Shown here piece after piece: positions 3-29,562 of a stretch of 32,000 bases of DNA (position 1 is its first letter; the number at the start of each line of letters is the position of its first letter). The position numbers and the translations under genes were made by a program. Source of the stretch: Lachnospiraceae bacterium. GTDB lineage: Bacteria > Bacillota > Clostridia > Lachnospirales > Lachnospiraceae. The notes under the pieces were generated by a model, which was not told the DNA's origin, did not search any database, and saw only the letters and a list, made by a program, of their open reading frames with translations. The stretch covers positions 1 to 32,000 of the forward strand of contig JAFZZY010000039.1 in assembly GCA_017615545.1 (NCBI GenBank), in the 5' to 3' direction.

Positions 3-128
3 CGCAGTAACGATGTAATAGACAGAAGTGTTGCAAGAATCAACATGTATCAAATACTTGACACCATAAAAGTGGATACGGTCAATAAGAATGTTTGTGA
101 AATCGTGAGTGAAATACTGACGCTTTGA
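3..128 (+). CDS. possible 3' end of a gene truncated by the window edge (41 codons open to position 3)
   Basis: Frame 3 is open from the first base to TGA at 126-128 (..SVARINMYQILDTIKVDTVNKNVCEIVSEILTL*). No recognisable motif. Supported only by the open frame running into the edge. Confidence 0.3.
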   Translation, partial: RSNDVIDRSVARINMYQILDTIKVDTVNKNVCEIVSEILTL

Positions 129-3844: not shown

Positions 3845-4635
3845 GAAGAGTAACAAAACGTATTTCTATGATCGTTATGGCACTGATGCTGATGTTCGCC
3901 ATGGTCGCATGCGTGGGTAAAAACAGCGAAGACGAGACGAAGGGCAGCACGGACACGAAGGCTGGCAATGTCTCAAAAACGCAAGCGGCAAACCAGACGG
4001 GCATAATGGGCGCAACAGGGGATCTTATCGATAAACCGGGAGCAGCGTCTCTCGAGGAATTGGTTAATAGGGTCATAGATGCGATCAACGACGGCGGCGA
4101 TTTTTCGCAGTTGAAGGATATGACGATCCTGTATCCGATGATCATCGGATTGGGCGGATATGAGGATAATTTCTTTCGAGGTTATTTCAAATCCGGTTCT
4201 ACCGGCGATTATTCGCTCCTACTGGAATACCTTGCTGTGATCAATGATCTGGAAATGGGACTCGATCATATAAAGGAGAACTATCCGAGTTTTACGGCCA
4301 GATGGGGAAAAGAGTTCCTCAACGCGTTTGACGAAGAAGACAGGGAGTTCTTTTTGCGCTGGAAGAATATAATCGACAATAATGTTCCGCTGGATGAGAT
4401 CTATATAAAAAAGATGTATTCCGCTATCGAGTATAACGGGGAAGAATACGGCGTGCGTGAGATAATGGGCCTCGTTTTCCACGATTATTATGAGAACTAT
4501 GCCCCGATCAAATTCGATCAGGATGTCTATGAGGTGAAGTTCGACGGTTATGATCACATCGTATTGAGAGTTGGAAATCGGACGATCTCGTTCCCATACC
4601 TTGTGTATAATGACATGTATTACCTTTGGGATTGA
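3841..4635 (+). CDS. putative lipoprotein, unknown function
   Basis: N-terminus MRRVTKRISMIVMALMLMFAMVAC|VGKNSEDE has a basic n-region, a hydrophobic core and a lipobox-like MVAC. Translationally coupled to the upstream gene. Confidence 0.8.
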   Translation: MRRVTKRISMIVMALMLMFAMVACVGKNSEDETKGSTDTKAGNVSKTQAANQTGIMGATGDLIDKPGAASLEELVNRVIDAINDGGDFSQLKDMTILYPMIIGLGGYEDNFFRGYFKSGSTGDYSLLLEYLAVINDLEMGLDHIKENYPSFTARWGKEFLNAFDEEDREFFLRWKNIIDNNVPLDEIYIKKMYSAIEYNGEEYGVREIMGLVFHDYYENYAPIKFDQDVYEVKFDGYDHIVLRVGNRTISFPYLVYNDMYYLWD

Positions 4636-7117: not shown

Positions 7118-7864
7118 ATGAATATCAAATCGATCCAATGTCCGTCCTGCGGCGGTAACCTGAATGTCGAAAACATCAACCAGTCGTTGTTCTATTGCCA
7201 GTACTGCGGTGCAGCGGTACAGCTGGAAACGAACCGAAATAAAGGTTACGACCTGGAGCACGGTCGACTGGATGCCCGTGCCGAGATGGCGGATACGATC
7301 CTTCAGAGGATCGAAAAGATCAAACCCGAACTGATCCGTAACGGAAATGCGGACCATGACATAAAGAACCTGCCTGGTGTTATCGGTGAATACAAAGCAG
7401 ATCTGAGTGAAAACCGGATCTACGGGACGAAGGATATGGTCATAAGGGGCTTTTTCAAGGGCCTGGGCATGCTGTTTATCGGCGCTTTTTTCGTAGTTGC
7501 ACTGAACAAAACGCTGCCGACGCCGCTCCATACTTTGCTCATGATTCTCGTCGGATTTGCGCCGATCTATATCCCGGCCATCGGCGTTTTCATTGTGACC
7601 AGGAGAAGTGCCGAGATCAAGTGGCAGATCGCACGTACGGAGGAACGGCTCGCGCAGGCGCGCAGGGATTACGCCGAGTCGGAAGCGTATCTGGCGCAAA
7701 ACGCCGAGGTCGAGATCCCGCCGCGTTTCCGCACAGAGCAGGCGCTCAACTATATGATCCGTGGCTTGAAGGCTAGGGAGTTCATTTCTCTGGATCAGGC
7801 GATCTTCCGCTGCGAGGAGGCCATGGCGCGAAACGAGGTCCCGGACCTCTACCGCCCGTTCTGA
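7118..7864 (+). CDS. zinc-ribbon membrane protein, unknown function
   Basis: N-terminal CPSCGG..x17..CQYCGA is a CxxC..CxxC zinc ribbon. Two central hydrophobic helices and a charged, helical C-terminus. GGAGGA RBS. Confidence 0.7.
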   Translation: MNIKSIQCPSCGGNLNVENINQSLFYCQYCGAAVQLETNRNKGYDLEHGRLDARAEMADTILQRIEKIKPELIRNGNADHDIKNLPGVIGEYKADLSENRIYGTKDMVIRGFFKGLGMLFIGAFFVVALNKTLPTPLHTLLMILVGFAPIYIPAIGVFIVTRRSAEIKWQIARTEERLAQARRDYAESEAYLAQNAEVEIPPRFRTEQALNYMIRGLKAREFISLDQAIFRCEEAMARNEVPDLYRPF

Positions 7865-11522: not shown

Positions 11523-12251
11523 ATGATATTAACGGCAGAGAATTTGACGAAAGAATACGGGAAGAAGAGGGCATTGGATACATTTTCCTATACCTTCCAT
11601 GAGGGGATCTATGGCCTGTTGGGACCGAACGGCGCGGGAAAATCAACGCTGATGGGTATCCTGACGACCGGACTGAAGGCGACATCCGGAAAGGTCCTCT
11701 GGGATGGAACGGACATCGCCTCGATGGGTAAGAATTACCGCGGCCTGGTCGGTTTCATGCCGCAACAGCAGAGGATCTATGAGGACTTTACGCTGACGCG
11801 GTTCTTGTACTACGTTGCTTCTTTGAAGGGCAAGAAGAAGCAGGATGTGAAGGACGAGATCGACGACATCATCCACAGCGTGAACCTGTGGGAAGTCCGC
11901 AATGACTGCATCGGCACGTTTTCGGGTGGTATGAAGCAGCGGACACTGCTGGCCCAGGGACTGGTCGGTGATCCGTCGATCCTGATCATGGACGAACCGA
12001 CGGTCGGGCTGGACCCGAAGGAGCGTGTGCACTTCCGGGAACTGGTCAGCCGCGTAGCCGGCGAGAAGATCGTCATCATCGCGACACATATCGTAAGTGA
12101 CCTTGAAAAATTGGCCTCAGAGATCATCTTTTTGAACCACGGAAAGATCGTAGAGAGCGGTACATTGGATACGCTGTATGAAAAGTACGGCGGACAGAAA
12201 GAGACTTCGGTAGAGGAAATCTACATGAGCCTCGGAATGGAGAGTAAATAA
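11523..12251 (+). CDS. ABC transporter ATP-binding protein (ABC-2/DrrA-like)
   Basis: Walker A GPNGAGKST, signature FSGGMKQR, Walker B ILIMDEPT, H-loop IATH. Confidence 0.9.
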   Translation: MILTAENLTKEYGKKRALDTFSYTFHEGIYGLLGPNGAGKSTLMGILTTGLKATSGKVLWDGTDIASMGKNYRGLVGFMPQQQRIYEDFTLTRFLYYVASLKGKKKQDVKDEIDDIIHSVNLWEVRNDCIGTFSGGMKQRTLLAQGLVGDPSILIMDEPTVGLDPKERVHFRELVSRVAGEKIVIIATHIVSDLEKLASEIIFLNHGKIVESGTLDTLYEKYGGQKETSVEEIYMSLGMESK

Positions 12252-14374
12252 TGTTCCTGCACGAGTGGTATAAATTATGGCATAACAGGAAGCTTCTGGG
12301 CTTTTTGGTCGCCCTTCTTTTGGTGAACGCCCTCTATTTCTGGTACCACGCCGAACGTGATGTCGCGCCTGCGCACGCCTACCGGGCGTTGACGGCGGAT
12401 CTGCGCGGCTATAGCGATGCGGAGGCGGCGGAGCAGCTCGCCCAGATGAAACAGGAAGCGTCGGCGATCTATTATATGGAGCCGGGCAATGTCGTCTGGA
12501 CGGACCCGAAGTATACCGACTCTCTGTTCACGGAGAGGGAGCTGCTCGCGATCAAGGAGGCAGAGTACACCGATGTGCTCGACTATCCCAAGTTCGTGAA
12601 GAAGGCGGCCGGTACAGCGGCTGAGTACAAAATGTTGCTGACGATCCTCGGCGGATCCGGCGATAAGATGAAGGATGTGGAAAAAACGAGTAAGGAGTAC
12701 GAGCAGCTGCTCGGCCTTACGATCCGCCAGACACATACGAAGGGAATTGCGGAAGCATTGTCCCTGCCGAGTTTGATATTTTTGGAACTGTTGCTTGCGG
12801 TTCTGCTGACTTCGCTGATGTTCACGAAGGAAAAAGAGCAGGGCCTGCTTCGGTTGTATTCTTCCATGAAGTCCGGGCGCGGACGGATGTTCCTGACCCG
12901 CGTGGGAGCGGTCTCCGTGGGATGCGCGGTCTGCAATTTTCTTTTCTTGTTGACGACGCTCCTGACGGGCTGCCTGCTCTACGGAAGGCCGATCGGCTCG
13001 TTCCTGACGGAGCCGGTGCAGTCTCTGATCGGGTATAAGCAGACGGTCATGCAGATCAACATCGGGACATTTCTCCTGTTGGTATTTGTGTGGTCCTGCA
13101 TCGTATCGACGGCAGTCGTGTTGCTTACGTCGGTAGTCAGTTCGCTGGTCTCTTCGGCGTTGAAGGTCTACGTGATCCTCTTTTCGCTGATCGGTATCGA
13201 GGGTATCCTCTACATGAAAATCGACGACCTGAGTTATCTGGCTGGCTTTAAGCGGATCAATCTCGTGTCATTTGCCGATCCCGGATACACGATCGCGCGC
13301 TACCACAACGAGATCGTGTTCGGAAATCCGATCAGTTATCCGATCGTCGCGTTGGCGCTTCTGGCGTTGCTGATCCTGGTCTGCGCAGCGGTCGGCTGGA
13401 TCCTGTCAAATAAAGGCTTCGGCGTGATCCCGAGACGGGGCAGAGGCCTCCGTTTCCTGCGGATCTTCAAGCGGTCGGAGGAGCATGGCTTCGGAAGTCA
13501 TACGAGACTTTCCCTACATGAGAGCGTGAAGTTTTTCCGTTTCGAGAAGATCGGTTATATTCTTTTGATCCTAGCGGTGTTCCTGTTGGCGACGACAAAA
13601 CCGTATAAGAAGTACGACTCCTCGATCGAGGAAATGTTCTATCAATCCTACCTGTATCGTGTGGAACAGGTCGGACCGGAGCAGTACGGCGATATCCTCG
13701 TGCAGTTTGAGGAGGAGATGGAGCGGGAGCAGAGGATGTCATCCGATTCGTCTTCGCTTCAGTATAAGCAGACAGCGCTGAACCGCATTACGGAGTATCT
13801 CACATATCTGCAGTCGAAGGAGGGCTCGCAGGCTCTCGACGTCCGCGGGTATGAGAAATTGTATAAGGACCGGAAGCAGAACGTCATCCTCGGCGTCTGC
13901 GCGGTGCTGGCGGCGATCTTGTGCGGCGCGGCGAGCATGGCGGTCGAATATCGCACAGGTATGATCGGGCAGATCTGCATTTCCCCAAAACGCGGAAAAG
14001 TATTCCTGTGTAAAGCCCTCATCCTGCTTGGTACGGTCACCCTGTTTTACGGGATGATCTACGGCAGATACCTCTATCAGGTGCTGAAGGGCTACGGAAC
14101 GTACGGCATCGGCTTTTCGGCGAACAGCCTGCCGGACTGGAAGAACCTGCCTGCGTCGTTTTCGATGGCCGGAGGGATCGCCCTCGTTTGGCTGAAGCGC
14201 TATGTCGGCATGCTTCTGGTCACCGGCGTGACGGTTTTCGCGACAAGCAGGATCAAAAGCTTCCTGATGACAGCGATCGTGTGCCTTGTGATCATCGCTG
14301 TACCGCTGTTGCTCTGCCTGTGGGAGTCGGGCGTTCTGTCATACATAATGTTCAACTATTTCTTCGTGATATAG
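12251..14374 (+). CDS. large polytopic membrane protein, presumed permease partner of the ABC ATPase
   Basis: 707 aa. TAATG overlap with the ATPase gene. Two clusters of hydrophobic helices (about aa 170-390 and 540-707), each preceded by a hydrophilic segment that begins with one helix. Confidence 0.8.
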   Translation: MFLHEWYKLWHNRKLLGFLVALLLVNALYFWYHAERDVAPAHAYRALTADLRGYSDAEAAEQLAQMKQEASAIYYMEPGNVVWTDPKYTDSLFTERELLAIKEAEYTDVLDYPKFVKKAAGTAAEYKMLLTILGGSGDKMKDVEKTSKEYEQLLGLTIRQTHTKGIAEALSLPSLIFLELLLAVLLTSLMFTKEKEQGLLRLYSSMKSGRGRMFLTRVGAVSVGCAVCNFLFLLTTLLTGCLLYGRPIGSFLTEPVQSLIGYKQTVMQINIGTFLLLVFVWSCIVSTAVVLLTSVVSSLVSSALKVYVILFSLIGIEGILYMKIDDLSYLAGFKRINLVSFADPGYTIARYHNEIVFGNPISYPIVALALLALLILVCAAVGWILSNKGFGVIPRRGRGLRFLRIFKRSEEHGFGSHTRLSLHESVKFFRFEKIGYILLILAVFLLATTKPYKKYDSSIEEMFYQSYLYRVEQVGPEQYGDILVQFEEEMEREQRMSSDSSSLQYKQTALNRITEYLTYLQSKEGSQALDVRGYEKLYKDRKQNVILGVCAVLAAILCGAASMAVEYRTGMIGQICISPKRGKVFLCKALILLGTVTLFYGMIYGRYLYQVLKGYGTYGIGFSANSLPDWKNLPASFSMAGGIALVWLKRYVGMLLVTGVTVFATSRIKSFLMTAIVCLVIIAVPLLLCLWESGVLSYIMFNYFFVI

Positions 14375-14427
14375 AGGACAGAATATGATATAATACTTCT
14401 ATACTCGTAAACGGAGGAAAGGATGCT

Positions 14428-14928
14428 ATGGGATTTTTTGACAAATTAAAAGATGCAATGAAACAGGCTTCGGAAAATGCGAACCGCAAAACCGCAGGTG
14501 TGCAGCCGCAGGATCCACAGCCGGCAGCGGCGCAGCGGAAGAGCAGACTGCCTGAAGGAGTGATCATGGCGATGCTCGATGAGAGAAATATGCAGCCGAT
14601 CGTCTACGGGACCGATGAGAACGGCAAAGACCTGGTGATGAGGGTCAGCGGCGCCATTCATTTCAAGCAGGATAATCCGGATGACACGGATCATGCGGTC
14701 CTTCGTAAGAAGGTAGCAGGCATTGCCCGCGAGCATATCGTAGCCGGCTTGAAGACGATCGATCCGGAGGATCTGAAATCACTGCTTCTCCTGGCGAACC
14801 GCTTAAACGGAGAGATCCTCGAGGATCTGAAGGCGAATGGTTATACCGCCAGCTACAAACTTCCGCTCATACTTACGCCTGCGCGCAGACCGAACCCCGC
14901 GCCGGAAGAGACTTCGGAAGAAAATTAA
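14428..14928 (+). CDS. hypothetical protein (166 aa)
   Basis: GGAGGAAAGG RBS. The N-terminus MGFFDKLKDAMK is followed by a Pro/Gln-rich linker and a globular C-terminal part. No motif assigned. Confidence 0.65.
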   Translation: MGFFDKLKDAMKQASENANRKTAGVQPQDPQPAAAQRKSRLPEGVIMAMLDERNMQPIVYGTDENGKDLVMRVSGAIHFKQDNPDDTDHAVLRKKVAGIAREHIVAGLKTIDPEDLKSLLLLANRLNGEILEDLKANGYTASYKLPLILTPARRPNPAPEETSEEN

Positions 14929-14947
14929 AAAAATTTAAAAAAAACTG

Positions 14948-14976
14948 TTGACAAAGTTGAGAACCTGTATTAAAAT
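14948..14976 (+). promoter_or_regulatory. sigma-A promoter upstream of asnB leader
   Basis: TTGACA (14948-14953), 17 nt, TAAAAT (14971-14976). Preceded by A-tracts (AAAAAATTTAAAAAAAA) that look like an UP element. Confidence 0.6.
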
Positions 14977-15001
14977 GTGCTCAATTTGAATGATGTATGG
15001 C

Positions 15002-15041
15002 AAAGGCGCCACGGAGGATATCCGTGGCGCTTTTTGTTTTT
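15002..15041 (+). terminator. intrinsic terminator inside the asnB 5' leader (candidate attenuator)
   Basis: AAAGGCGCCACGG-AGGATAT-CCGTGGCGCTTT: 9 G/C-rich bp plus an A-U/G-U extension, followed by TTTTTGTTTTT. Lies between the promoter and the asnB ATG at 15083. Confidence 0.7.
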
Positions 15042-15082
15042 CCATTCAAAGATAGAACACATGAAGAAAGAGGCAAAAAACG

Positions 15083-16666
15083 ATGTGCGTTGTAATGGGA
15101 ATGAAAAAGAGAAATATCTCCCGCGCCGCATTTGAGAACCACATGAAGGTCACAACTTCCCGCGGGCCGGATGGAATGCGGGTCGTGCAGGCGGGCGATG
15201 GTTTCCTCGGTTTTCAGAGATTGTCCATCATGGGACTGACCGAGGCCGGTATGCAGCCGTTTGAACGAAACGGCAATATCGTCGTTTGTAACGGCGAGCT
15301 GTACGGCTTCCGAAACCAGAAGGCAAAACTGATGGAAGCCGGCTACACATTCCAGAGCGACAGCGACTGCGAGATCATCCTTCCGATGTACGAGTTGTAC
15401 GGACGGAAAATGTTTTCCATGCTGGATGCGGAATACGCCATGATCCTGTACGACGCTAAGGAGGGAGAACTGATCGCGGCCCGCGACCCGATCGGCATCC
15501 GGCCTTTGTTCTACGGATATGACGAGAGCGGCGACATCTGTTTTGCCAGTGAAGCGAAGAACCTGGTCGGCCTGACCGATAAGATCACGCCGTTCCCGCC
15601 GGGCCACTACTATTACAAAGGCGAGTTCATCTGCTACAACGATCTGGCAGCGCGTCAGCCCTATGTGGACGATGACCTCGAGACCGTTTGTAAGAACATT
15701 CGCGAGAAACTGATCGCAGGCGTGGAAAAACGTCTGGATGCAGATGCAAAGATCGGTTTCCTGCTTTCGGGAGGTTTGGACAGTTCCCTGGTATGCGCGA
15801 TCGCGACGAAGATCTTAGGACATCCGATCGAGACATTTGCCATAGGAATGAACGAAGACGCGATCGACCTGAAGTACGCGAAAGAGGTGGCCGACTTCAT
15901 CGGCAGCAACCATCACGAGATCATCATCAATAAGGACATCGTGCTGGGAGCGCTCCGCGAGGTCATCGCGGCCCTGGGTACCTTCGATATCACGACGATC
16001 CGGGCGAGCATGGGAATGTACCTGATCTGCAAAGGCATTCGCGAGACCACGGATATCCGGGTGCTCCTGACCGGCGAGATCTCCGATGAGATCTTCGGTT
16101 ACAAGTACACGGACTTCGCTCCGAACGCTGAAGAGTTCCAGTTGGAAGCAGAGAAGAGACTTCGCGAGTTGTACATGTACGACGTGCTTCGCGCCGACCG
16201 TTGCATTTCGGTCCACTCGATGGAGGCCCGCGTTCCGTTCGGCGATCTGGATTTCGTATCCTACGTAATGCGGATCCCGCCGGAGAAAAAGATGAATGTC
16301 TACAACAAAGGAAAATACCTGTTGCGCCATGCGTTCGAGGGCCTGGGTTACCTGCCGCAGAACATTCTGATGCGCGAGAAAGCAGCATTTTCCGATGCAG
16401 TCGGACATTCGATGGTAGACTACTTAAAGGCTTACGCCGAGGAAGTCTACAGCGATGAAGTTTTCAAAGAGAAATGCGCGGCTTACGATCACGTGCCGCC
16501 GTTCACCAAAGAGTCGCTTTTGTATCGCGAGATCTTTGAAGAGTTTTATCCCGGACAGGCAGAGATGATAAAGGATTTCTGGATGCCGAACAAAAACTGG
16601 GAGAACTGTGATGTCAACGATCCGTCGGCCCGTGTTCTTAAGAACTACGGCCAGAGCGGTTGTTAA
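15083..16666 (+). CDS. asnB: asparagine synthase (glutamine-hydrolysing)
   Basis: N-terminal Met-Cys (class II Ntn amidotransferase nucleophile). ..RGPDG.., ..QRLSIMG..GMQPF.. and the PP-loop LLSGGLDSS align by eye with E. coli AsnB. Confidence 0.9.
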
Positions 16667-16686
16667 TAAAAAAGGAGGATATCAAA

Positions 16687-18789
16687 ATGGATGTTACCAA
16701 GATTTTCGGAAGTATGGTATTTAATGACGATGTGATGAAAGAACGTCTTCCCAAGGATGTGTATCGTGTTCTTCACAAGACCATCGATGACGGCGTGCAT
16801 TTGCAGCTGGACATCGCAAACGTAGTTGCGGAGGCCATGAAGAATTGGGCCATCGAAAAGGGTGCAACGCACTTCACACATTGGTTCCAGCCGATGACCG
16901 GCATCACCGCAGAGAAGCATGACGGTTTTATCGCTCCGGAAGGAAACGGACGTGTTTTGATGGAGTTCTCCGGTAAGGAACTCGTAAAGGGCGAGCCCGA
17001 TGCATCCTCCTTCCCGTCCGGCGGCCTGCGTGCGACATTTGAGGCACGTGGTTATACAGCCTGGGATCCTACCAGTTATGCATTTATCAAGGACGACACC
17101 CTGTGCATCCCGACCGCGTTTTGTTCTTACAGCGGCGAGGCGCTGGATAAGAAGACACCGCTCCTGCGTTCCATGCAGGCGCTGGATAAGCAGGCAGTAC
17201 GTATCCTGCGTTTGTTCGGAGATACCGCTTCTAAGCGTGTTATGACTACGGTCGGCCCGGAGCAGGAGTACTTCCTGATCGACTGCGACGTTTATAAGCG
17301 TCGTCCCGACCTGATCTATACAGGACGTACATTGTTCGGCGCGAAGCCGCCGAAGGGCCAGGAAATGGAAGATCACTACTTCGGTATGATCAAGCCCAGA
17401 GTAAAGGCTTATATGAAAGACCTGGATGAGGAGCTGTGGAAGCTCGGCATCCTGTCGAAGACGGAGCATAACGAAGTAGCTCCGGCCCAGCATGAATTGG
17501 CCCCGATCTTCTCGACGACCAACATCGCAACGGATCACAACCAGTTGACGATGGAGCTGATGAAGATCGTTGCAGGCAAGCACCACATGGTATGCCTGCT
17601 GCATGAGAAGCCGTTCGCAGGCGTGAACGGTTCCGGTAAGCACAACAACTGGTCCATGTCGACCGACACAGGTAAGAACCTGTTGGAGCCGGGCGAAACA
17701 CCGTCCCAGAATGCGCAGTTCCTGCTCTTCCTGATGGCAGTCATCAAGGCAGTCGATGAATATCAGGGTCTGCTCCGTATGTCGGTTGCTTCCGCGGCAA
17801 ATGACCACCGTCTCGGCGCAAACGAGGCACCGCCCGCGATCATGAGCGTATTCATCGGTGATGAACTCGATGCAGTCCTGAAGGCGATCGAAGATGGCAC
17901 GGACTATCATGATCCCGAGAAGAAGCTGATGAGCATCGGCGCTACGGTCCTTCCTCATATCCCTTGCGATACGACCGACCGTAACCGTACTTCACCGGTT
18001 GCATTTACCGGTAATAAATTTGAATTCCGTTCGCTCGGTTCTTCCGCATCGATCTCCGGTCTGAACATCGTTCTGAACACGATCGTTGCACAGACACTCA
18101 GCGAATATGCAGAGATCCTGGAGAAGGCAGACGACTTCGACGCGACCCTCAACAAACTCATCCGTGACGAGATCAAGGCGCATAAGCGCATCATCTTCAA
18201 CGGCAACGGTTATTCCGAGGAGTGGGTGAAGGAAGCTGAAAAGCGCGGCTTGCTGAACCTGAAGACGACCGTCGATGCACTCGGATCGTTCATCGAGCCG
18301 AAGAACATGAAGATCTTCGAGGACCAGGGCGTTTACTCCGAGTCCGAGATCAAGGCTCGTTACGAGATCCTGCATGAGAACTACTACAAGACCATCAACA
18401 TCGAGGCGCTTACGCTGATCTCCATGGTGAAGAACAACATCACCGGAGCCGTAGCAAACTACGAGGGACGTCTTGCAGATGTGATCATCAAGAAGAGCCA
18501 GGCTCTTTCGAAGGATGCCTGCACATGTGAGGAGACTCTCCTGAAGCACATTTCCCGTCTGGCATGCAGCCTGCAGTGCAAGCTGGGTAAGCTGGAAGAG
18601 GATGTTGCGAAGGAGAAGGAACTGACCGATGTTGTCGCTTTGGCGAAGTATCATCAGGAAGTCATCCTGGCCGACATGGCAGCGCTGCGTGAGGTAGTCG
18701 ACGAGATCGAGCCGCTGATCCCGAGCGATCTGTGGCCGTACCCGACCTACGCTGAGATCCTGTACAGTGTACGGTATCAGCCGGTATAA
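16687..18789 (+). CDS. glnN: glutamine synthetase, type III (about 700 aa)
   Basis: Start placed at the ATG at 16687, behind AAGGAGG. The length and the N-terminal block ..[29 protein letters not shown].. are characteristic of GSIII as I recall it from Bacteroides/Butyrivibrio/Ruminococcus. Confidence 0.85.
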
Positions 18790-18858
18790 ATTAGGCGTTT
18801 TTCTAACCAATCTCTCAAAATACATGGTACCGCCAGGCGGTGCCGAAGCAATTTCATT

Positions 18859-18907
18859 AACGAAGGTGCAACGGGGCACGAAAGGAACCGTTGCACCTTC
18901 GTTTTTT
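18859..18907 (+). terminator. strong rho-independent terminator after the GSIII gene
   Basis: 16-bp stem AACGAAGGTGCAACGG / CCGTTGCACCTTCGTT with a 13-nt loop, followed by a TTTTTT run. Confidence 0.85.
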
Positions 18908-18998: not shown

Positions 18999-20771
18999 AT
19001 GGATACTGGTAGCATTATGAGTTTGATCGACGAAAAAGTGTTCGGCGTCTGGTTCCTGATCGGCGCGGCACTCGTGTTCTGGATGCAGGCTGGTTTCGCC
19101 ATGGTCGAGACCGGTTTCGCCCGTGCGAAGAACGCAGGTAACATCTTGATGAAGAACCTGATGGACTTCTGTATCGGTACCGTGACGTTCATCCTGATCG
19201 GTTTCGGTCTGTTCCTGGGCGAAGACGCGCTCGCAGGTTTCTTAGGTCTTCCGAGCTTTGATATCTTCACGGATTACGCTCACTTCGACTGGAGCAACTT
19301 CGTATTCAACCTGGTATTCTGTGCGACGACCGCAACGATCGTTTCCGGTGCTATGGCAGAGCGTACCCGTTTCCTTTCTTACTGTGTTTACTCGGCGATC
19401 ATTTCCGCAGTGATTTACCCGATCGAAGCTCACTGGACATGGGGCGGCGGCTGGCTCGCTAAGCTCGGTTTCCACGATTTCGCAGGTTCCAACTGCATTC
19501 ACATGGTCGGCGGTATCTGCGCCCTGATCGGTGCGATCATGGTCGGTCCCCGTATCGGTAAGTTCGTAAAAGATAAAGCCGGAAAGGTTACTAAGGTCAA
19601 TGCTTTCCCCGGCCACAACATCACTCTCGGCGCCCTGGGTGTATTCATCCTGTGGCTCGGCTGGTATGGTTTCAACGGCGCTGCTGCAACCAGTGTTGAG
19701 CAGTTGGGCGCTATCTTCGTAACGACCACGATCGCTCCTGCGGTCGCAACCGTAGTATGTATGATCTTCACCTGGATCCATTACGGCAAGCCCGATGTAT
19801 CCATGTGTCTCAACGCTTCTCTCGCAGGTCTGGTAGCGATCACCGCTCCTTGTGACGTAGTTGACGCAGCCGGCGCTTCCATCATCGGCGCGATCTCCGG
19901 CCTCGTAGTTATCTTTGGTATCTGGCTTCTCGATCACAAGCTTCACGTTGACGACCCTGTCGGCGCTGTAGGCGTTCACATGTGCAACGGTATCTTCGGT
20001 ACCCTCGCTGTAGGTCTGTTCGCAACCGACACAGCACCCACCTATGCATTGGCCGACTCTTCAGGCAACCCGATGCTCGGACTGTTCTACGGCGGCGGTT
20101 TCAAACTCCTCGGCATCCAGACTCTGGGTATGCTGGCCACGGCAGCCTGGACAGCGATCACCATCACGATCACATTTGCCATCATTAAAAAGATCTTCGG
20201 TCTTCGTGTTACCGAAGAAGAGGAACTTACAGGTCTCGATATCACTGAGCACGGTCTTGCATCCGCATACTCAGGTTTCTCCATCATGGATGTTACCGGC
20301 ATGGAGATGTCGGTCAATGAGAACACGGACCTCGGTGTCAGCGAGTACGGCGAGGCATCGCAGGCTATGGTCGATGCAGCCGTTAAGGTAAATGCAGCGC
20401 CTGTGATGAGCACTGCAACGATGCACAAAGTCGTTATCATCGCAAAGCTGGCTCGTTACGAGCAACTTAAGAAGGCCCTCAACGATCTCGGTGTTACCGG
20501 TATGACGGTCACACAGGTCATGGGCTGCGGTATCCAGAAGGGTGCCGGCGAGAAGTACCGTGGTATTGAAATGGATGCCACCCTGCTTCCGAAGGTTAAG
20601 GTCGAAGTCGTAGTCAGCAAGATCCCGGTGGCGGATGTCATCGAGGCTTCGAAGAAGGCACTGTACACCGGTCACATCGGTGATGGTAAGATCTTCGTAT
20701 ACGGCGTAGAGCAGGTCGTTAAGGTACGTACCGGCGAGGAAGACTTCGCAGCATTGCAGGATGTAGAATAA
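18999..20771 (+). CDS. amt: ammonium transporter (Amt) fused in frame to a C-terminal P-II (GlnB/GlnK) domain
   Basis: Start placed at the ATG at 18999, behind GAGGAGG; the track's 18891 start lies inside the terminator. Amt motifs are FWMQAGFAMVETGF and HDFAGSNCIHMVGG. The last 116 aa (nt 20421-20768), MHKVVIIAKL..GVTGMTVTQVMGCGIQKGAGEKYRG..LLPKVKVEVVV..TGHIGDGKIFV..V.KVRTGE, align without gaps to canonical P-II. Confidence 0.9.
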   Translation: MDTGSIMSLIDEKVFGVWFLIGAALVFWMQAGFAMVETGFARAKNAGNILMKNLMDFCIGTVTFILIGFGLFLGEDALAGFLGLPSFDIFTDYAHFDWSNFVFNLVFCATTATIVSGAMAERTRFLSYCVYSAIISAVIYPIEAHWTWGGGWLAKLGFHDFAGSNCIHMVGGICALIGAIMVGPRIGKFVKDKAGKVTKVNAFPGHNITLGALGVFILWLGWYGFNGAAATSVEQLGAIFVTTTIAPAVATVVCMIFTWIHYGKPDVSMCLNASLAGLVAITAPCDVVDAAGASIIGAISGLVVIFGIWLLDHKLHVDDPVGAVGVHMCNGIFGTLAVGLFATDTAPTYALADSSGNPMLGLFYGGGFKLLGIQTLGMLATAAWTAITITITFAIIKKIFGLRVTEEEELTGLDITEHGLASAYSGFSIMDVTGMEMSVNENTDLGVSEYGEASQAMVDAAVKVNAAPVMSTATMHKVVIIAKLARYEQLKKALNDLGVTGMTVTQVMGCGIQKGAGEKYRGIEMDATLLPKVKVEVVVSKIPVADVIEASKKALYTGHIGDGKIFVYGVEQVVKVRTGEEDFAALQDVE

Positions 20772-20852
20772 GCAGGGCTTATACATCCTATTACAGGAGT
20801 AAAAGTCATTTTGCAGGCGGCCCAGAAAGCCGAAAAAAATTGAAAAAAGGCA

Positions 20853-20881
20853 TTGACACGTCTATGCCGCTGTGCTAAAAT
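20853..20881 (+). promoter_or_regulatory. sigma-A promoter upstream of gltB leader
   Basis: TTGACA (20853-20858), 17 nt, TAAAAT (20876-20881). A-tracts lie upstream (GAAAAAAATTGAAAAAAGG). The hexamers and spacing are the same as in the asnB promoter. Confidence 0.6.
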
Positions 20882-20897
20882 GCTTTCTTAGAAAAGC

Positions 20898-20939
20898 AAA
20901 GGCGCTTTGATGGGTGTAACAGCCCTTCAAAGCGCCTTT
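20898..20939 (+). promoter_or_regulatory. long leader hairpin upstream of gltB (weak terminator or regulatory stem-loop)
   Basis: AAAGGCGCTTTGA(T)GGGT-GTAACA-GCCC(T)TCAAAGCGCCTTT: 13 + 4 bp with one U-U mismatch and a hexaloop. The downstream U-tract is interrupted (TTTCGTGATT). Confidence 0.5.
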
Positions 20940-20989
20940 CGTGATTCCGGGAAAGCATTTTCCGTAGTATCGACAAAGGAGCAGTTAAG

Positions 20990-23900
20990 ATGGAAAAGTA
21001 CGAATATCATCCGATCGAACATGATGCCTGCGGTATCGGCGCCGTGGCAAATATCGACGGCGAGGCAAGCTATGAGACGATGTCGGACGCATTGTCCATC
21101 GTGGAAAAACTCGAGCACCGCGCAGGCAAGGACGCCAGCGGAAGCGTCGGAGACGGCGTGGGCATCCTGTTGCAGGTGAGCCATGATTTCTTTTCAAAAG
21201 CAGCGGCAGAGCAGGGGATCTCTGTAGGCGGTGCCGGAGACTACGGCATCGGTATGATCTTTTTGCCGGCCGATGAGATGAAGCGCACTTTCTCGATGCG
21301 GATGTTGCAGATGATCGCGGCGAAGGAAGGCCTTAAGTTCCTGGGCTGGCGTAAGGTTCCGACGCATCCGGAGATCCTGGGCCAGGTGGCTCTGGACTCG
21401 ATGCCTGCGATCTATCAGTGCTTCCTGGGACGCCCGGAGCATGTGGCGCGCGGCCTGGATTTCGACCGCCGTCTGTACGTAGTTCGCCGCGAATATGAGC
21501 AGAGTGCCGATGATGCTTATGTTTGCTCGCTTTCGTCCCGTACGATCGTTTATAAGGGTATGTTTTTGGTCAAGCAGCTGCGTGCATTCTACGATGATCT
21601 GCGCAGCACCGATTACAAGACCGCGATCGCGATCGTGCATTCTCGTTTCTCGACGAATACGAACCCTTCGTGGGACCGTGCGCATCCGTACCGCATGATC
21701 GCGCACAACGGCGAGATCAACACGATCCGCGGTAACATTGACCGTATGCTCGCCCGTGAGGAAACCATGAAGAGCCGGATCTTTGCCGAGGATCTGGATA
21801 AGGTTTACCCTGTTGTCAGCCTGTCGGGCTCGGACTCTGCGATGTTCGACAACACGATCGAGTTCTTATATATGAATGGGATGCCGCTGCCGCTGGCCAT
21901 GATGATCACGGTGCCGGAGCCCTGGAAGCATAATGAGTACATGGAGCGTACAAAGAAGGATTTCTACCATTACTACGCTACCATGATGGAGCCGTGGGAC
22001 GGACCGGCAGCCATGCTGTTTTCGGATGGCGAGCTGCTTGGCGCGACGCTGGACCGCAACGGTCTGCGCCCTTCCCGCTACTATATCACGGATGACCACC
22101 GCCTGATCCTCGCATCCGAGGTCGGCGTGCTGGACATTGACCCTGCACATATCGTGAAAAAGTCCCGTCTGGAGCCCGGCCGCATGCTGCTCGTAGATAC
22201 GAAGAGCAAGCGCATCATCTCCGACGAGGAGTGTAAATCGATCTATGCAAATAAGGAGCCTTACGGCGAATGGCTGGACCAGAACCTGCAGCATCTTGCA
22301 GATCTGAAGATCCCAAATAAGAAGATCCCGACGCACACGCAGGAGATGCGGGACCGCCTGTATAAGGCATTCGGCTACACCTATGAGGACGTGAAGGACC
22401 TCATCCTGCCCATGGCGAAGAACGGTATCGAGCCGACGGTTTCCATGGGACACGACGTTCCGCTGGCGGTACTGAGCCGCAGACATCAGTCGCTGTTCAA
22501 CTATTTCAAGCAGCTGTTCGCGCAGGTCACCAACCCGCCGATCGACTCGTTGCGTGAGAAGATCGTCACCGACACGACCGTATACATCGGTTCCGACGGC
22601 GACCTGCTGACCGAGAAGAGCGAGAACTGCCGCATGCTCGAGATCAATCACCCGATCCTGACCGGCGTTGACGTCATGAAGATCAAGAGCCTGGATACGG
22701 AGAGCCTGAAGAGCACGACAGTATCCCTGCTTTTCTATAAGAATACTTCGCTTAAGAAAGCGGTGGAGCAGCTCAATATCCGCGTGGATAAAGAGGTTGC
22801 TTCCGGAAAGAATATCATCATCCTGTCCGACCGCGGCGTGGATGAGAACCATATGGCGATCCCGTCGCTGCTGGCGGTTTCGAGCGTGGAGCAGCACCTG
22901 GTGCTCACGAAGAAGCGAACCGCCGTTTCGATCATCCTCGAATCTGCAGAGCCGCGTGACGTGCATCAGATGGCAGTCCTGTTGGGCTTCGGCGCACGAG
23001 CCATCCATCCGTACCTCGCGCATGAGTGCATTGCCGAGATGATCGACCTGGGCATCCTGGATAAGGATTACCACACGGCGATCGAGGATTACAACTCGGC
23101 GATCCTGAACGGTATCGTAAAGATCGCAGCGAAGATGGGTATCTCCACGATCCAGTCCTACCAGTCGGCGCGTATCTTCGAGGCGATCGGCCTGTCGAAG
23201 GAAGTGATGGATCACTATTTCACCGGTACGGTGAGCCGTGTAGGAGGCATCGGCATCCGCGAGATCGAAGAGGGCGTTTTGTTCCGCCACAATCATGCAT
23301 TCGATCCGCTGGAGCTGGGTACAGACACCCGACTGGATTCGACTGGTTTCCACTCGTTGCGCAGCGGTGAGGGTGCGGAGGATCATTTGTACGATCCGAC
23401 CACGATCGTCAATCTGCAGCGCGCGGTACGCACCGGCGATTATGCGAAGTTTAAGGAATATACGGCGCTGGTCGATGCGGAGGATCGTCCGCACACCTTG
23501 CGCGGCCTGCTGGATATGGTATCGGATCGCGCACCGATCGATATCAGCGAAGTAGAGCCGGCGGAAAGTATAGTCCGCAGGTTTAAGACGGGAGCCATGA
23601 GCTATGGTTCGCTGTCCCAGGAGGCACATGAGACCCTGGCGATCGCCATGAACCGTCTCGGCGGTAAGTCGAATACCGGTGAGGGCGGCGAAGCGAGCGA
23701 ACGCTATGGCACAGAGAAGAACAGCGCGATCAAGCAGGTCGCTTCGGGACGTTTCGGCGTAACGAGCGCATATCTGCGGAGCGCAAAAGAAATACAGATC
23801 AAGATGGCGCAGGGCGCGAAGCCCGGCGAGGGCGGACACCTTCCGGGTAAGAAGGTCTACCCGTGGGTTGCGGCAACACGTTTCTCCACACCGGGTATCT

Positions 23901-25510
23901 CGCTGATCTCCCCGCCGCCGCACCATGATATCTACTCGATCGAGGATCTGGCACAGCTGATCTACGATCTGAAGAATGCCAACCGCGACGCGAGAATCAA
24001 CGTTAAACTGGTCTCCGAAGCGGGCGTCGGCACGATCGCATCCGGTGTTGCAAAAGCCGGTGCCCAGGTCATCCTGATCTCGGGCTATGACGGCGGTACC
24101 GGAGCAGCTCCGCCCAGCAGCGTGCATCACGCAGGTCTGCCTTGGGAGCTGGGTCTGGCCGAGGCACATCGCAGCCTGATCGAGAGCGGCCTCCGTTCCC
24201 GCGTCACCATCGAGACCGACGGTAAGCTGATGAGCGGCCGTGACGTTGCGATCGCAGCCCTGTTGGGCGCCGAGGAGTTCGGTTTCGCAACGGCTCCGCT
24301 GGTATGTATGGGTTGTATGATGATGCGTGTCTGCTCGAAGGACACCTGCCCGGTCGGCATCGCGACGCAGAATAAAGAGCTGCGTAAGCGTTTCGCAGGT
24401 AAGCCGGAGCACGTAATGAACTTCATGCTGTTCATCGCTGAGGAACTGCGTGAGATCATGGCACAGCTCGGTTTCAAGACCGTGGAAGAGATGGTCGGCA
24501 GAAGCGACATCCTGCATGTGCGTAAACACCCGATCACGAAGCGTGCGGGCATGGTAGACCTGGCGGCAGTGATCGATCCGACCTATGCAGAGTTCGAGAA
24601 GCGTCATTTCGATCCGAAAGACATTTATGATTTCAAACTTTCCGAGACACCGGATATGAAGCAGTTGCTGCCGTATTTCGCGGATGTTTTAAGCGGAAAG
24701 AAGAGTGAGAAGAAGCCTGTAACAGTGCAGGTTTCCAGTACAGACCGTAGTTTCGGTACCATCCTCGGTTCCGAGATCACACTGAAGCTGGGTAGCGACG
24801 TGAAGGACGACACCTTCCGCGTGGAGGCAGTCGGCGGCGGCGGACAGTCGTTCGGCGCATTCCTTCCGAAGGGCCTGACGATCCGCCTGACGGGCGATGC
24901 AAACGACGGCGTCGGCAAGGGATTGTCCGGCGGTAAGCTCATTATCGTCCCGCCGAAGAACGCGGGCTATGCGGCCGATGAAAACATCATCATCGGTAAC
25001 GTTGCGCTATACGGCGCGACCTCCGGTACGCTCTATGCGAGCGGTATCGCGGGCGAGCGTTTCTGCGTACGTAACTCGGGCGCGACGGCGGTAGCCGAAG
25101 GTTGCGGCGACCACGGTCTGGAGTACATGACCGGAGGCGTGGCAGTCCTGCTCGGACCGACCGGTAAGAACCTGGCAGCCGGCATGAGCGGCGGTATCGC
25201 GTTTGTTCTGGACGAGCATCACGACCTGTATCGCCGGATCAATAAAGAAATGGTAACTTTCGGTGAGATCACCGAAAAAGAAGATAAGGAACGCCTGCTG
25301 GAGATCCTGAAGGATTACGCGGCGGCGACCGGCTCGAAGAAAGCAGCCGGCATCCTGGAGAAGTATGATGAGATGCTTCCATATTTCAAGAAGATCGTGC
25401 CGATCGGTTACAGCCGCATGCTGAAGACCATCGCGAAGTACGAGGCGAAGGGCATCAGCCGCGACGCTGCAGTCCTGGAAGCATTTGAAGAGATTTCAAA
25501 GGAGGGTTGA
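20990..25510 (+). CDS. gltB: glutamate synthase large subunit
   Basis: 1506 aa. Has an N-terminal propeptide followed by the Ntn Cys (HDACGIGAV). FMN/Fe-S domain motifs are NTGEGGE, KMAQGAKPGEGGHLPG, ISPPPHHDIYSIEDL and CxxxxxC..CPVGIATQ. C-terminal GXGXG beta-helix repeats are present. Confidence 0.95.
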   Translation: MEKYEYHPIEHDACGIGAVANIDGEASYETMSDALSIVEKLEHRAGKDASGSVGDGVGILLQVSHDFFSKAAAEQGISVGGAGDYGIGMIFLPADEMKRTFSMRMLQMIAAKEGLKFLGWRKVPTHPEILGQVALDSMPAIYQCFLGRPEHVARGLDFDRRLYVVRREYEQSADDAYVCSLSSRTIVYKGMFLVKQLRAFYDDLRSTDYKTAIAIVHSRFSTNTNPSWDRAHPYRMIAHNGEINTIRGNIDRMLAREETMKSRIFAEDLDKVYPVVSLSGSDSAMFDNTIEFLYMNGMPLPLAMMITVPEPWKHNEYMERTKKDFYHYYATMMEPWDGPAAMLFSDGELLGATLDRNGLRPSRYYITDDHRLILASEVGVLDIDPAHIVKKSRLEPGRMLLVDTKSKRIISDEECKSIYANKEPYGEWLDQNLQHLADLKIPNKKIPTHTQEMRDRLYKAFGYTYEDVKDLILPMAKNGIEPTVSMGHDVPLAVLSRRHQSLFNYFKQLFAQVTNPPIDSLREKIVTDTTVYIGSDGDLLTEKSENCRMLEINHPILTGVDVMKIKSLDTESLKSTTVSLLFYKNTSLKKAVEQLNIRVDKEVASGKNIIILSDRGVDENHMAIPSLLAVSSVEQHLVLTKKRTAVSIILESAEPRDVHQMAVLLGFGARAIHPYLAHECIAEMIDLGILDKDYHTAIEDYNSAILNGIVKIAAKMGISTIQSYQSARIFEAIGLSKEVMDHYFTGTVSRVGGIGIREIEEGVLFRHNHAFDPLELGTDTRLDSTGFHSLRSGEGAEDHLYDPTTIVNLQRAVRTGDYAKFKEYTALVDAEDRPHTLRGLLDMVSDRAPIDISEVEPAESIVRRFKTGAMSYGSLSQEAHETLAIAMNRLGGKSNTGEGGEASERYGTEKNSAIKQVASGRFGVTSAYLRSAKEIQIKMAQGAKPGEGGHLPGKKVYPWVAATRFSTPGISLISPPPHHDIYSIEDLAQLIYDLKNANRDARINVKLVSEAGVGTIASGVAKAGAQVILISGYDGGTGAAPPSSVHHAGLPWELGLAEAHRSLIESGLRSRVTIETDGKLMSGRDVAIAALLGAEEFGFATAPLVCMGCMMMRVCSKDTCPVGIATQNKELRKRFAGKPEHVMNFMLFIAEELREIMAQLGFKTVEEMVGRSDILHVRKHPITKRAGMVDLAAVIDPTYAEFEKRHFDPKDIYDFKLSETPDMKQLLPYFADVLSGKKSEKKPVTVQVSSTDRSFGTILGSEITLKLGSDVKDDTFRVEAVGGGGQSFGAFLPKGLTIRLTGDANDGVGKGLSGGKLIIVPPKNAGYAADENIIIGNVALYGATSGTLYASGIAGERFCVRNSGATAVAEGCGDHGLEYMTGGVAVLLGPTGKNLAAGMSGGIAFVLDEHHDLYRRINKEMVTFGEITEKEDKERLLEILKDYAAATGSKKAAGILEKYDEMLPYFKKIVPIGYSRMLKTIAKYEAKGISRDAAVLEAFEEISKEG

Positions 25511-25512
25511 TC

Positions 25513-27009: not shown

Positions 27010-27031
27010 TATAATATCAAAGGTGGGGCGT

Positions 27032-28480: not shown

Positions 28481-29562
28481 AGGCATATCTGATCTTAGAG
28501 GACGGGACTACATTTTGCGGAACTTGCGTGGGCGCGCCTGCGGAAGTCATCGCGGAGATCGTCTTCAACACATCGATGACCGGATACCTGGAGATATTGA
28601 CAGACCCGTCGTATTGCGGGCAGGCTGTCGTGTTTACGTATCCGTTGATCGGAAATTACGGCATATGTTTCGATGACATGGAGTCAAAGAACATCTGGCC
28701 CAAGGCGATGATCGCCCGCGGCATCTCGGACATCCCGAGCAATTTCCGTTCGGAAAATACGTTACCGAACCTGCTGAAGCGGTATCACATCCCGGCGATC
28801 AGCGGCATCGATACACGTGCGCTGACGAAGCATTTGCGTACGGCCGGGACCATGAACGGCATGATCACCACGAAGGAATACCTGCCGGACGATCTTCCGA
28901 AGATCCTGGCGAAGATCCGCGGCTACAAGGTGACCGACGGCGTTCGTTTGACGACGGCAAAAGAAGCGGAAGAATTCGCGCCGACCGGCCCTTCGATCGG
29001 AAAACGGGTGGCGCTGTATGATATGGGTGAGAAGGAAAATATCCTGCGGAGTCTGCGGGCGCGCGGGATCACAGTGAAGAATTTTCCGGCGACGGCGAGT
29101 GCGAAAGAGATCCTCGCGTACAAGCCGGACGGCATCATGATCTCCAACGGGCCGGGCGACCCGAAGGATAATTTCCATGTAATAAAGGAATTAAAAGAGA
29201 TCTATGCGAGCGACATTCCGGTGTTCGCCATCTGCCTGGGCCACCAGTTGATGGCGCTGGCGACGGGCGCGGATACTTATAAGCTGCCCTATGGACACCG
29301 CGGCGCGAACCATCCGGTGAAGGATCTGGAGACCGGACGTGTGTACATCACGTCGCAGAACCATGGCTATGCGGTCGACATGAAGACCGTGGATCCGAAG
29401 ATCGCCGTGGCGGCCTACGAGAATGTCAACGATAAGACGAATGAAGGCCTGCGCTATGTGGGCAGAAATATATTGACCGTACAGTTCCACCCGGAGGCAA
29501 GTCCGGGACCGAAGGATACGGAGGGACTGTTTGATCGTTTTGTGGAGATGATGGAGGCGTAA
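28477..29562 (+). CDS. carA: carbamoyl-phosphate synthase small (glutaminase) subunit
   Basis: GTG start overlapping the purF stop (GTGA). The class I triad context is ICLGHQL, and HGYAV and QFHPEA are also present. Confidence 0.95.

Follow-up and report, generated by a model that had tools for sequence, protein, structure and literature searches.

The stretch of DNA analysed here, 32,000 nucleotides of a Lachnospiraceae contig (JAFZZY010000039.1, positions 1 to 32,000; hereafter 'the window'), carries on its + strand a nitrogen-assimilation cluster in which a gene for a 166-residue protein is followed by asnB, glnN, amtB-glnK, gltB, gltD, a purF-like gene and carA (Pfam assignments). We propose, with a probability of roughly 80%, that the short leader of asnB-glnN attenuates transcription in a protein-dependent manner and belongs to the ANTAR class, a NitR-like ANTAR protein clamping a small hexaloop hairpin. 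This reading draws on a match to the binding site of the regulator GnfR, on a pair of competing RNA structures, on covariation of the small stem, on the association of the element with nitrogen genes, and on an ANTAR gene in the same genome. An earlier note on this DNA had suggested that a trans-acting factor, either an RNA-binding protein or a small RNA, governs readthrough of a terminator in this leader according to nitrogen status, and had not recognised the leader as any named element. The RNA-binding protein is favoured by the ANTAR-type hairpin, the GnfR-site match, the ANTAR gene beside glnA and the nitrogen genes downstream, while the small RNA found no support; and the leader proved recognisable as a published kind of ANTAR target (the GnfR, NitR and Ramesh 2012 regulons).

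The leader begins with an A/T-rich, UP-like tract read from the sequence (14929–14947, + strand), resembling A-tracts found ahead of the promoters of gltB and of relatives. It leads into a sigma-70-type promoter, TTGACA-17-TAAAAT (14948–14976, + strand; 11/12 match), the best promoter-like site found by scanning between 13.5 and 16.5 kb. From the predicted start site at ∼14983–14984, about 7 nucleotides past the −10 box, 17–19 nucleotides precede the stem of an intrinsic terminator (15002–15041, + strand). That stem (15002–15034) comprises 14 basepairs, 8 of them G-C, with a 5-nucleotide loop, and is followed directly by the U-tract TTTTTGTTTTT extending to 15041, the arrangement of G+C-rich stem and immediate U-tract that defines a Rho-independent terminator. 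The 60-nucleotide leader folds at −26.2 kcal/mol (z = −5.05), and none of 200 shuffled sequences was as stable. The spacer that remains (15042–15082) is 41 nucleotides long, with GAGG at 15070–15073 and the asnB ATG at 15083, and a scan found no promoter-like site within it. The earlier note had called the near-consensus promoter with its A-tract, the canonical terminator, the 41 nucleotides that include the ribosome-binding site and lack a second promoter, and the ∼20 nucleotides ahead of the stem, too few for a riboswitch aptamer or a T-box; each of these observations holds. The Infernal search against Rfam that it had also proposed, run on the window and on leaders, returned no family match: none for the whole window at gathering score, only terminator-only look-alikes for positions 14850–15150 at E values up to 10 (the best being L10_leader, E = 0.12), and none for the equivalent leaders of three relatives (loci L068, L070 and L074). 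A promoter followed by a terminator is in itself weak evidence of regulation, since terminator-like sites were about as numerous in the scanned sequence as in shuffles of it.

The foot of the terminator can also form part of a second structure. Positions 14998–15011 (+ strand), which read GGCAAAGGCGCC, fold alone at −5.0 kcal/mol into the antiterminator hairpin that we propose as the ANTAR binding site, with a 4-basepair stem (TGGC, 14998–15001, and GCCA, 15008–15011) closing the hexaloop AAAGGC (15002–15007). The loop has A at its first position and G at its fourth (A1 and G4), the signature of ANTAR targets, which are defined by a stem of at least 3 basepairs and an A1/G4 hexaloop. The 5′ arm of the terminator contains the loop and the 3′ half of this hairpin, and the two structures are mutually exclusive. 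Given terminators of −26 to −32 kcal/mol against small hairpins of −4 to −5.3 kcal/mol, termination should be the default state, and the far weaker small hairpin would win only if held by something. A strict structural scan of the window (a 4-basepair stem and a C-A..G..-G hexaloop overlapping a terminator) gave two hits, in the asnB and gltB leaders, against 0.07 in shuffles. A count of the motif in the window with up to one mismatch gave 2 hits where 2.83 were expected, which is not significant alone, so the significance of the window hits lies in their structural context. We conclude that the composite of hexaloop hairpin and overlapping terminator is not due to chance.

The gltB leader repeats the layout of the asnB leader, with an A-tract, a TTGACA-17-TAAAAT promoter (20853–20881, + strand; 11/12 match, with a TG), which aligns with the asnB promoter, and a long hairpin. 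Its small hairpin, AAAGC-AAAGGC-GCTTT (20893–20908, + strand; −4.0 kcal/mol alone), is the second strict-scan hit and begins 11 nucleotides past the −10 box. It overlaps, and excludes, a terminator-like hairpin at 20896–20939 (+ strand; −32.3 kcal/mol, z = −5.79) that is followed by a weak U-tract, CCUUUCGUGAUU. The two leaders share the 10-mer GCAAAGGCGC at the foot of the terminator 5′ arm, and the flanking stem pairs differ between them yet remain complementary.

Both leaders resemble the binding site of GnfR, which with GnfK controls nitrogen-fixation genes by antitermination in Geobacter sulfurreducens. In that organism the leader sequence CAGGCAANGGCGCC overlaps the 5′ side of premature terminators at nifH, nifX, glnK and amtB, with one conserved site described per terminator, and GnfR binds RNA carrying CAGGCAANGGCGCC in vitro and does not bind mutant RNA (Ueki & Lovley 2010, PMC2995071). 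Over 12 positions the asnB leader, GGCAAAGGCGCC, is identical to the GnfR site, and over 14 positions (atGGCAAAGGCGCC) it matches at 12, including all of GGCAANGGCGCC; the gltB leader, aaaaGCAAAGGCGCtt, has only the 10-nucleotide core GCAANGGCGC. In both the Geobacter leaders and the asnB leader, the site overlaps a premature terminator ahead of nitrogen genes. The systems differ in promoter type (sigma-54 in Geobacter, sigma-70-like here), in phylum (Bacillota, Lachnospiraceae here), in their targets (here asnB, glnN and gltBD) and in the regulator, GnfR being a response regulator phosphorylated by its partner kinase GnfK (PMC2995071), whereas the ANTAR protein encoded here appears to have a pseudo-receiver.

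A third hexaloop hairpin is a candidate in the leader of amtB-glnK. The intercistronic region after glnN contains an intrinsic terminator (18859–18907, + strand) with a 16-basepair stem and TTTTTT (−32.3 kcal/mol, z = −7.85), and scanning found no promoter-like site between glnN and that terminator. The candidate hairpin, GTGC-AACGGG-GCAC (18866–18879, + strand; −5.3 kcal/mol alone), has A1 and G4 and is identical in a relative (L003) and in a near-identical contig (L164, below); the strict structural scan did not recover it. Just 3′ of the glnN stop codon and 5′ of this attenuator lies another hairpin (18826–18844), GGTACCGC-CAG-GCGGTGCC, with 8 basepairs, a 3-nucleotide loop and no U-tract, which could be an RNA-processing or stability element.

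We surveyed loci gathered around two genes, 80 around glnN in species-representative genomes and 80 around asnB in metagenomes, and found 215 distinct structure-defined instances of the hexaloop hairpin with its terminator. The sequence GCAAAGGCG[CT] occurs at 105 distinct sites where about 7 would be expected by chance (our own estimate, 4^10 over 3.7 Mb). Its hosts include rumen Treponema as well as many Clostridia, and its typical position is the foot of a terminator 5′ of glnN, gltB, amtB and related genes. An unconstrained scan, which admitted any 4-basepair stem and any hexaloop overlapping a terminator arm, returned AAAGGC as the commonest loop (80 occurrences, out of 163 loops with A1 and G4), followed by AAAGAC, AAAGAG, AATGGC, AAAGGT and AAAGAT. 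All of the top loops have A1 and G4, and the preference for one of them suggests that loop conservation extends beyond those two positions.

The covariation check across relatives that the earlier note had proposed gave a clear outcome for the small stem. In a gap-free alignment of 150 distinct sequences, picked by loop and terminator only, 78.9% of the stem's cells were paired compared with 59.2% in shuffled alignments (0 of 500 shuffles reached the observed value), and the covariation score was 0.583, against 0.224 when shuffled and 0.10–0.17 in slid registers. Stem pairs 2–4 form in 84–91% of the sequences, each with five or six pair types, and GC, AU, GU, UA and CG are among the types at each stem position. 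An earlier count by hand, on sequences selected by the motif, had a less uniform register control, in which two shifted registers were paired at 68–77%. A loose selection (any C-A..G..-G with a terminator) was dropped because it admitted false positives from coding regions, and the loop-only filter was used instead. The apical part of the terminator, for its part, varies among relatives in both sequence and length.

At least one strict structural hit was present in 67 of 79 glnN loci. Where an instance had a downstream open reading frame, that frame was glnN, gltB, amtB, a carA-like gene, asnB or a purF-like gene in 99 of 112 cases, and most of the other instances that were checked precede pyrG, guaA, nadE, dapF or an LL-DAP aminotransferase gene. 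The predicted regulon is one of ammonium assimilation together with enzymes that use the glutamine amide or ammonia, and asnB fits within it. A promoter of the form TTGnnn-16..18-TAnnnT lies just upstream of 107 of the 215 instances, and in 59 of those 107 the hairpin starts 9–13 nucleotides past the −10 box, often with only ∼3–7 nucleotides of transcript ahead of it; the asnB leader, whose hairpin starts 21 nucleotides past the −10 box, belongs to a minor group with longer leaders. In relatives, divergent intergenic regions carry the element on both strands, each copy having a promoter of its own (in L074, for example, at 9736 on the − strand and 9902 on the + strand).

The candidate regulator is encoded downstream in the same cluster. 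Contig ERZ28653754 scaffold_553 of the European Nucleotide Archive (ENA; locus L164) has a single mismatch to the window across 13,524 nucleotides and continues past carA with carB, glnA (441 residues), an ANTAR gene (183 residues) and pyrG, which places an ANTAR-domain protein in the same genome. In L164 coordinates glnA occupies 14353–15678 and the ANTAR gene 15682–16233 (PF03861, 2e-14), with a 4-nucleotide gap between them; the ANTAR gene lies ∼2.2 kb past the end of the window and ∼5 kb downstream of carA, in the same orientation as the cluster. No terminator-like site was found between carB and pyrG in L164, and the promoter scan found no −35/−10 pair 5′ of glnA-ANTAR. We infer that the ANTAR gene is probably under the gltB attenuator, which would create positive feedback on the regulator. 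By eye, the 64-nucleotide carB-glnA spacer contains an extended −10-like sequence, TGTATAAT (L164 14285–14300), without a recognisable −35 element, from which glnA, the ANTAR gene and pyrG might be expressed at a basal level independently of the attenuators.

Genes of this kind accompany the element in relatives as well. Using a seed peptide, and checking the matches against Pfam, we found ANTAR open reading frames of ∼190 residues in 22 of the 80 glnN loci, and PF03861 was confirmed in all eight that were tested. A glutamine synthetase (GS) gene of 400–440 residues nearly always precedes them, with immediate adjacency in ∼18 of the 22, and the motif is also present in 21 of these 22 loci. The N-terminus of the 183-residue protein gave no receiver-domain match in Pfam, and we predict that it is a pseudo-receiver without the acidic pocket and the phosphorylated aspartate. 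No kinase gene was called among the genes flanking the L164 ANTAR gene, the wider genome not having been searched. The closest known structure to the protein is that of the Mycobacterium tuberculosis ANTAR protein 1s8n.

One arrangement of these genes recurs often, as an operon that is divergent from glnN and has the same kind of leader. In L074 (4383–9724, − strand) it comprises a leader, three proteins corresponding to split, archaeal-type glutamate-synthase domains (GATase_2, Glu_synthase with Fer4, and GXGXG), a GS of ∼402 residues and an ANTAR protein, and similar operons are found in L068, L059, L058, L064, L066, L050, L072 and L073. The short ∼402-residue GS beside a pseudo-receiver ANTAR protein could be its sensor partner.

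Within the ANTAR class, the nearest parallel by gene arrangement is NitR of Clostridium saccharobutylicum and Clostridium acetobutylicum, whose gene lies beside glnA and which is reported to antiterminate the genes for GS and glutamate synthase (GOGAT) under nitrogen limitation; an antisense RNA is a further component of that system (Stutz 2007, cited in PMC6316151 and PMC4676874). Here, too, an ANTAR gene lies immediately downstream of a type-I glnA in a nitrogen cluster of the Clostridia, and the role proposed for its product, antitermination of GS and GOGAT genes when nitrogen is limiting, is the same. The cluster described here differs from theirs in including the type III glutamine synthetase (GSIII) gene glnN, asnB and an amtB-glnK fusion. 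More generally, ANTAR targets have been defined by A1/G4 hexaloop hairpins, the second of which overlaps the 5′ arm of a terminator, and such elements have been predicted 5′ of PII, ammonium transporter and glutamate/glutamine synthase genes in Firmicutes such as Desulfotomaculum (Ramesh 2012, PMC3369931). The canonical targets (EutV on eut, NasR on nasF and AmiR on amiE) have two hexaloops (Ramesh 2012, PMC3369931; Walshe 2022, PMC8934654). Like them, the element described here has a short A1/G4 hexaloop hairpin with conserved closing pairs that excludes a terminator and is associated with nitrogen genes. Unlike them, it often has no room for the upstream (P1) hairpin, and the whole of its hairpin lies within or at the foot of the terminator 5′ arm, whereas in the canonical targets only the 3′ half of the hairpin is in the terminator. 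The absence of P1 means that the element lacks one defining feature of the dual-hairpin description of Ramesh and corresponds instead to a single, GnfR-type site. For the regulator, the closest analogy is AmiR of Pseudomonas aeruginosa, a non-phosphorylated pseudo-receiver that is governed by a partner protein, AmiC, and not by a kinase; the family of the protein described here likewise lacks phospho-acceptor residues. The two differ in that GlnA is suggested as the partner here from gene adjacency only, and in that the amiE leader has both P1 and P2. Control of nitrogen genes by ANTAR proteins was already established by work on GnfR (2010), on NitR (2007) and by Ramesh 2012, and the element is accordingly not a new principle. 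ANTAR antitermination through a single hexaloop, as such, was not described in any open-access report that we found.

Taken together with these precedents, the structures suggest the following mechanism. A strong and probably constitutive promoter (14948–14976) would start the transcript, whose first ∼60 nucleotides would by default fold into the terminator (15002–15041), so that transcription stops before asnB. The foot of the terminator 5′ arm can refold as TGGC-AAAGGC-GCCA (14998–15011), with A1 and G4, a structure that alone would be too weak to compete. Under nitrogen limitation the NitR-like 183-residue ANTAR protein would bind and clamp this hairpin as it emerges from RNA polymerase; the clamped hairpin would withhold the 5′ arm, the terminator would be blocked, and polymerase would enter asnB-glnN. 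The same switch would operate before gltBD-purF-carAB(-glnA-ANTAR-pyrG), and probably before amtB-glnK, making the cluster a small ANTAR regulon in which the regulator probably promotes its own expression. As for the signal, our guess is contact with the adjacent GlnA or with a PII protein and not phosphorylation, for which the support is gene adjacency only.

Several observations weigh against this mechanism. Some concern the missing P1 hairpin: by eye, candidates within 14983–14997 such as AATGAT and ATTTGA have no flanking pairs or no G4, and across the relatives a P1-like hairpin occurs within 40 nucleotides upstream of only 7 of the 215 instances, where chance would give 18.3. In the EutV system, deletion of P1 abolishes control (PMC3369931), as do changes in the spacing, and monomeric protein binds without antitermination (Walshe 2022, PMC8934654); a lone hairpin is bound by NasR only at ∼12 μM. 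The ANTAR family to which the predicted regulator belongs has SS in place of the DD pocket of receivers and N, S or G at the phospho-acceptor position. At the gltB leader the U-tract is poor in this strain (CCTTTCGTGATT, 20930–20950). The amtB-leader hairpin (18866–18879) lies inside the terminator 5′ arm and does not include the foot of the stem, an atypical placement. The enrichment for nitrogen genes is partly a matter of ascertainment, the loci having been chosen around glnN and asnB. Finally, the start site, termination and readthrough, binding by the 183-residue ANTAR protein and the signal are all predictions from sequence. In two of these respects there are further observations. The minimal binding motif has been redefined as a single hexaloop, although single sites are expected only where polymerase timing is irrelevant (Walshe 2022, PMC8934654). 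A relative with 96% identity (L003) has CTTTTTGTATTT at the position of the gltB-leader U-tract, and the gltB attenuator may simply be leakier in this strain.

In many relatives, complete hexaloop-plus-terminator attenuators stand in tandem 5′ of glnN, ∼60 nucleotides apart (L074, 9902 and 9964; L068, 9898 and 9963; L062, 5463 and 5520; L064, 9863 and 9957; L080, 9795 and 9899; L076, 920 and 994; L013, 13298 and 13365). Such tandem attenuators may tighten control in the absence of a P1 hairpin.

Among other explanations, the one that survives best, albeit at a low probability, is that the RNA-binding protein which clamps the hairpin is not the product of the neighbouring ANTAR gene, or that a base-pairing small RNA drives readthrough. 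Binding by the ANTAR protein is a prediction here, and the missing P1 departs from the ANTAR consensus. On the other hand, the A1/G4 hexaloop and the match to the GnfR site are specific to ANTAR proteins, and the motif and an ANTAR gene occur together in 21 of the 22 loci that bear such a gene, as well as in this genome. The small RNA in particular would have no conserved single-stranded target. Some room for further interactions in this strain is left by a pair of 8-mers that bracket the terminator, which the earlier note had pointed out: TTTGAATG (14985–14992, + strand) and its perfect complement CATTCAAA (15043–15050, + strand) are indeed present, pair with each other in the minimum-energy fold of the readthrough leader, and form an 8-basepair match; when the 5′ flank was shuffled 5000 times, that length was reached only 57 times. 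Relatives do not conserve the bracket, however. The closest distinct relative (L081, 97% AsnB identity) has the 3′ arm ACCTCAAA, keeps only 5 basepairs and carries an 80-nucleotide insertion; L002 and L094 retain 7 of the 8 pairs (one is broken, one is a wobble and one shows a compensatory change); and other relatives have only trivial A-rich/T-tract pairing at these positions. We rejected the bracket as a conserved closing helix on account of its loss in L081 and its absence from other relatives, and regard it as at most an extra feature of this strain, which may form a helix closing the 5′ end of the readthrough mRNA but is not part of the switch.

It is quite improbable that the hairpin merely terminates the upstream gene (14428–14928, encoding the 166-residue protein), with asnB-glnN expressed without regulation by constitutive leaky readthrough or from the promoter. 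The hairpin does share its strand with that gene, lying 74 nucleotides past the stop codon, and is the only terminator after it. Yet a near-consensus promoter separates the two, and the same hexaloop motif stands at the foot of a terminator before gltB and in divergent intergenic regions of relatives, where there is no co-directional upstream gene. The earlier note had set a plain terminator of this gene, with a stem unconserved in relatives, against its own proposal; the small stem instead covaries, which a plain terminator would not need, and the element recurs in divergent regions.

An equally slender chance attaches to a riboswitch that needs no protein and whose aptamer, set within the terminator, senses glutamine, 2-oxoglutarate or ammonium directly. 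The HMP-PP thiS class is a riboswitch of this design, and conserved nucleotides at the terminator foot, a leader of almost no length and the lack of an Rfam match would all suit one. The conserved part, however, is only a hairpin of 4–5 basepairs with a 6-nucleotide loop (−4 to −5 kcal/mol), and the apical part of the terminator is conserved neither in sequence nor in length; moreover, an ANTAR protein has been shown to bind a site of identical sequence, and ANTAR genes lie in the same clusters.

We consider it still less credible that the element acts at the DNA level, as an operator. Around +3 to +20 it would then be an inverted repeat of the kind ACAGC-N6-GCTGT, where a bound repressor blocks initiation or elongation. 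The position of the hairpin in the 59 of 107 promoter-bearing instances that start 9–13 nucleotides past the −10 box is as fixed as an operator would require, but the arms covary while the spacer is conserved, the reverse of the pattern expected for half-sites in protein-DNA recognition. The element is also found far from promoters (at asnB 21 nucleotides past the −10 box, before amtB in an intercistronic region, and in tandem arrangements as the second attenuator), and it always overlaps a terminator arm. The least likely explanation is that promoter and terminator constitute a gene for a ∼58-nucleotide trans-acting small RNA, such as an ANTAR decoy like EutX/Rli55: an off state would accumulate a short terminated transcript with the hexaloop sequence, and EutX is known to sequester EutV, but in the terminated RNA that sequence would be buried in the terminator stem, and the element always lies directly 5′ of a nitrogen gene on the same strand, with only 41 nucleotides to the ATG in the case of asnB.

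The genes that these leaders would govern are all on the + strand. The first of them, asnB (15083–16666), encodes a glutamine-hydrolysing asparagine synthetase (Asn_synthase, 2.9e-68; GATase_7), and glnN (16660–18789) encodes the GSIII (GSIII_N, 1.8e-81). The latter overlaps the asnB stop codon, so the two are probably co-transcribed; the gene call for glnN in L164 is 700 residues, and the true start may sit slightly downstream. The amtB-glnK gene (18999–20771; Ammonium_transp, 8.8e-115; P-II, 1.1e-22) joins the ammonium transporter AmtB and the PII protein GlnK in one fused polypeptide of 590 residues, by the gene call from L164. Downstream of the gltB attenuator are gltB, gltD, the purF-like amidotransferase gene and carA (20990–29562; Pfam). 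No Pfam family matched the open reading frame at 14428–14928, directly 5′ of the asnB promoter, nor did any match the other window frames at 2273–3844, 3841–4635, 7118–7864 and 12251–14374. Contigs that match the first open reading frame of the window begin at the same place and offer no further upstream context. GlnN is 100% identical to that of a Lachnospiraceae metagenome-assembled genome from water-buffalo rumen (RGIG7558, L001). Despite that identity, the gltB promoter region of the window (20820–20890) differs from the corresponding part of L001 (∼14170–14240), so the window represents a different strain from RGIG7558.

Two further observations concern the distribution of these switches. 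Rumen Treponema (Spirochaetes) loci (L009, L012–L019, L025–L029, L031–L033, L071 and L075) encode a GSIII that is 65–67% identical to the Lachnospiraceae protein and carry the same hexaloop attenuators; three of them (L012, L026 and L032) also have an ANTAR gene beside a GS gene. Judging from these sequences, the whole regulatory module may be common to different phyla. Other asnB orthologues (69–72% identity) have T-box-type leaders in place of the hexaloop attenuator. The region 2727–2970 of L154, ∼200 nucleotides 5′ of asnB, scores 109 bits against RF00230, and a AGGTGGCACCGCG box lies ∼200 nucleotides 5′ of asnB in L114, L119, L122–L124, L127, L128, L137, L141, L142, L148 and L155; of the T-box-like leaders other than that of L154, the four tested fell below the gathering score. 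Among related gut and rumen Clostridia, it appears that different RNA switches control asnB.

Only the single-hexaloop architecture and the pseudo-receiver regulator beside a GS might surprise a specialist. We offer tentatively, and with rather less than even confidence, the idea that Clostridia and rumen Treponema share a distinct ANTAR subclass, in which one promoter-proximal hexaloop (nnGC-AAAGGC-GCnn, at about +3 to +7) suffices, the pseudo-receiver regulator is set by contact with GS or PII, and GS is the nitrogen sensor. If true, such a subclass would contradict the rule of two hexaloops at fixed spacing derived from EutV and NasR; the consistent absence of P1 and the pseudo-receiver regulator beside GS amount to a testable challenge to the dual-hexaloop model. 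For annotation, the element supplies a signature that Rfam lacks, namely a 4–5-basepair stem with an A..G.. hexaloop (mostly AAAGGC) overlapping a terminator, by which regulons for nitrogen and the glutamine amide can be recognised in many Clostridia and in Treponema. For the organism itself, an uncultured rumen Lachnospiraceae, an ANTAR attenuator would explain the probable activation of the entire ammonium-assimilation cluster (asnB, GSIII, AmtB-PII, GOGAT and carAB, together with glnA, pyrG and the gene of the regulator). Transcripts from strong constitutive promoters would repeatedly bypass terminators with the help of a single RNA-binding protein that the cluster itself encodes.

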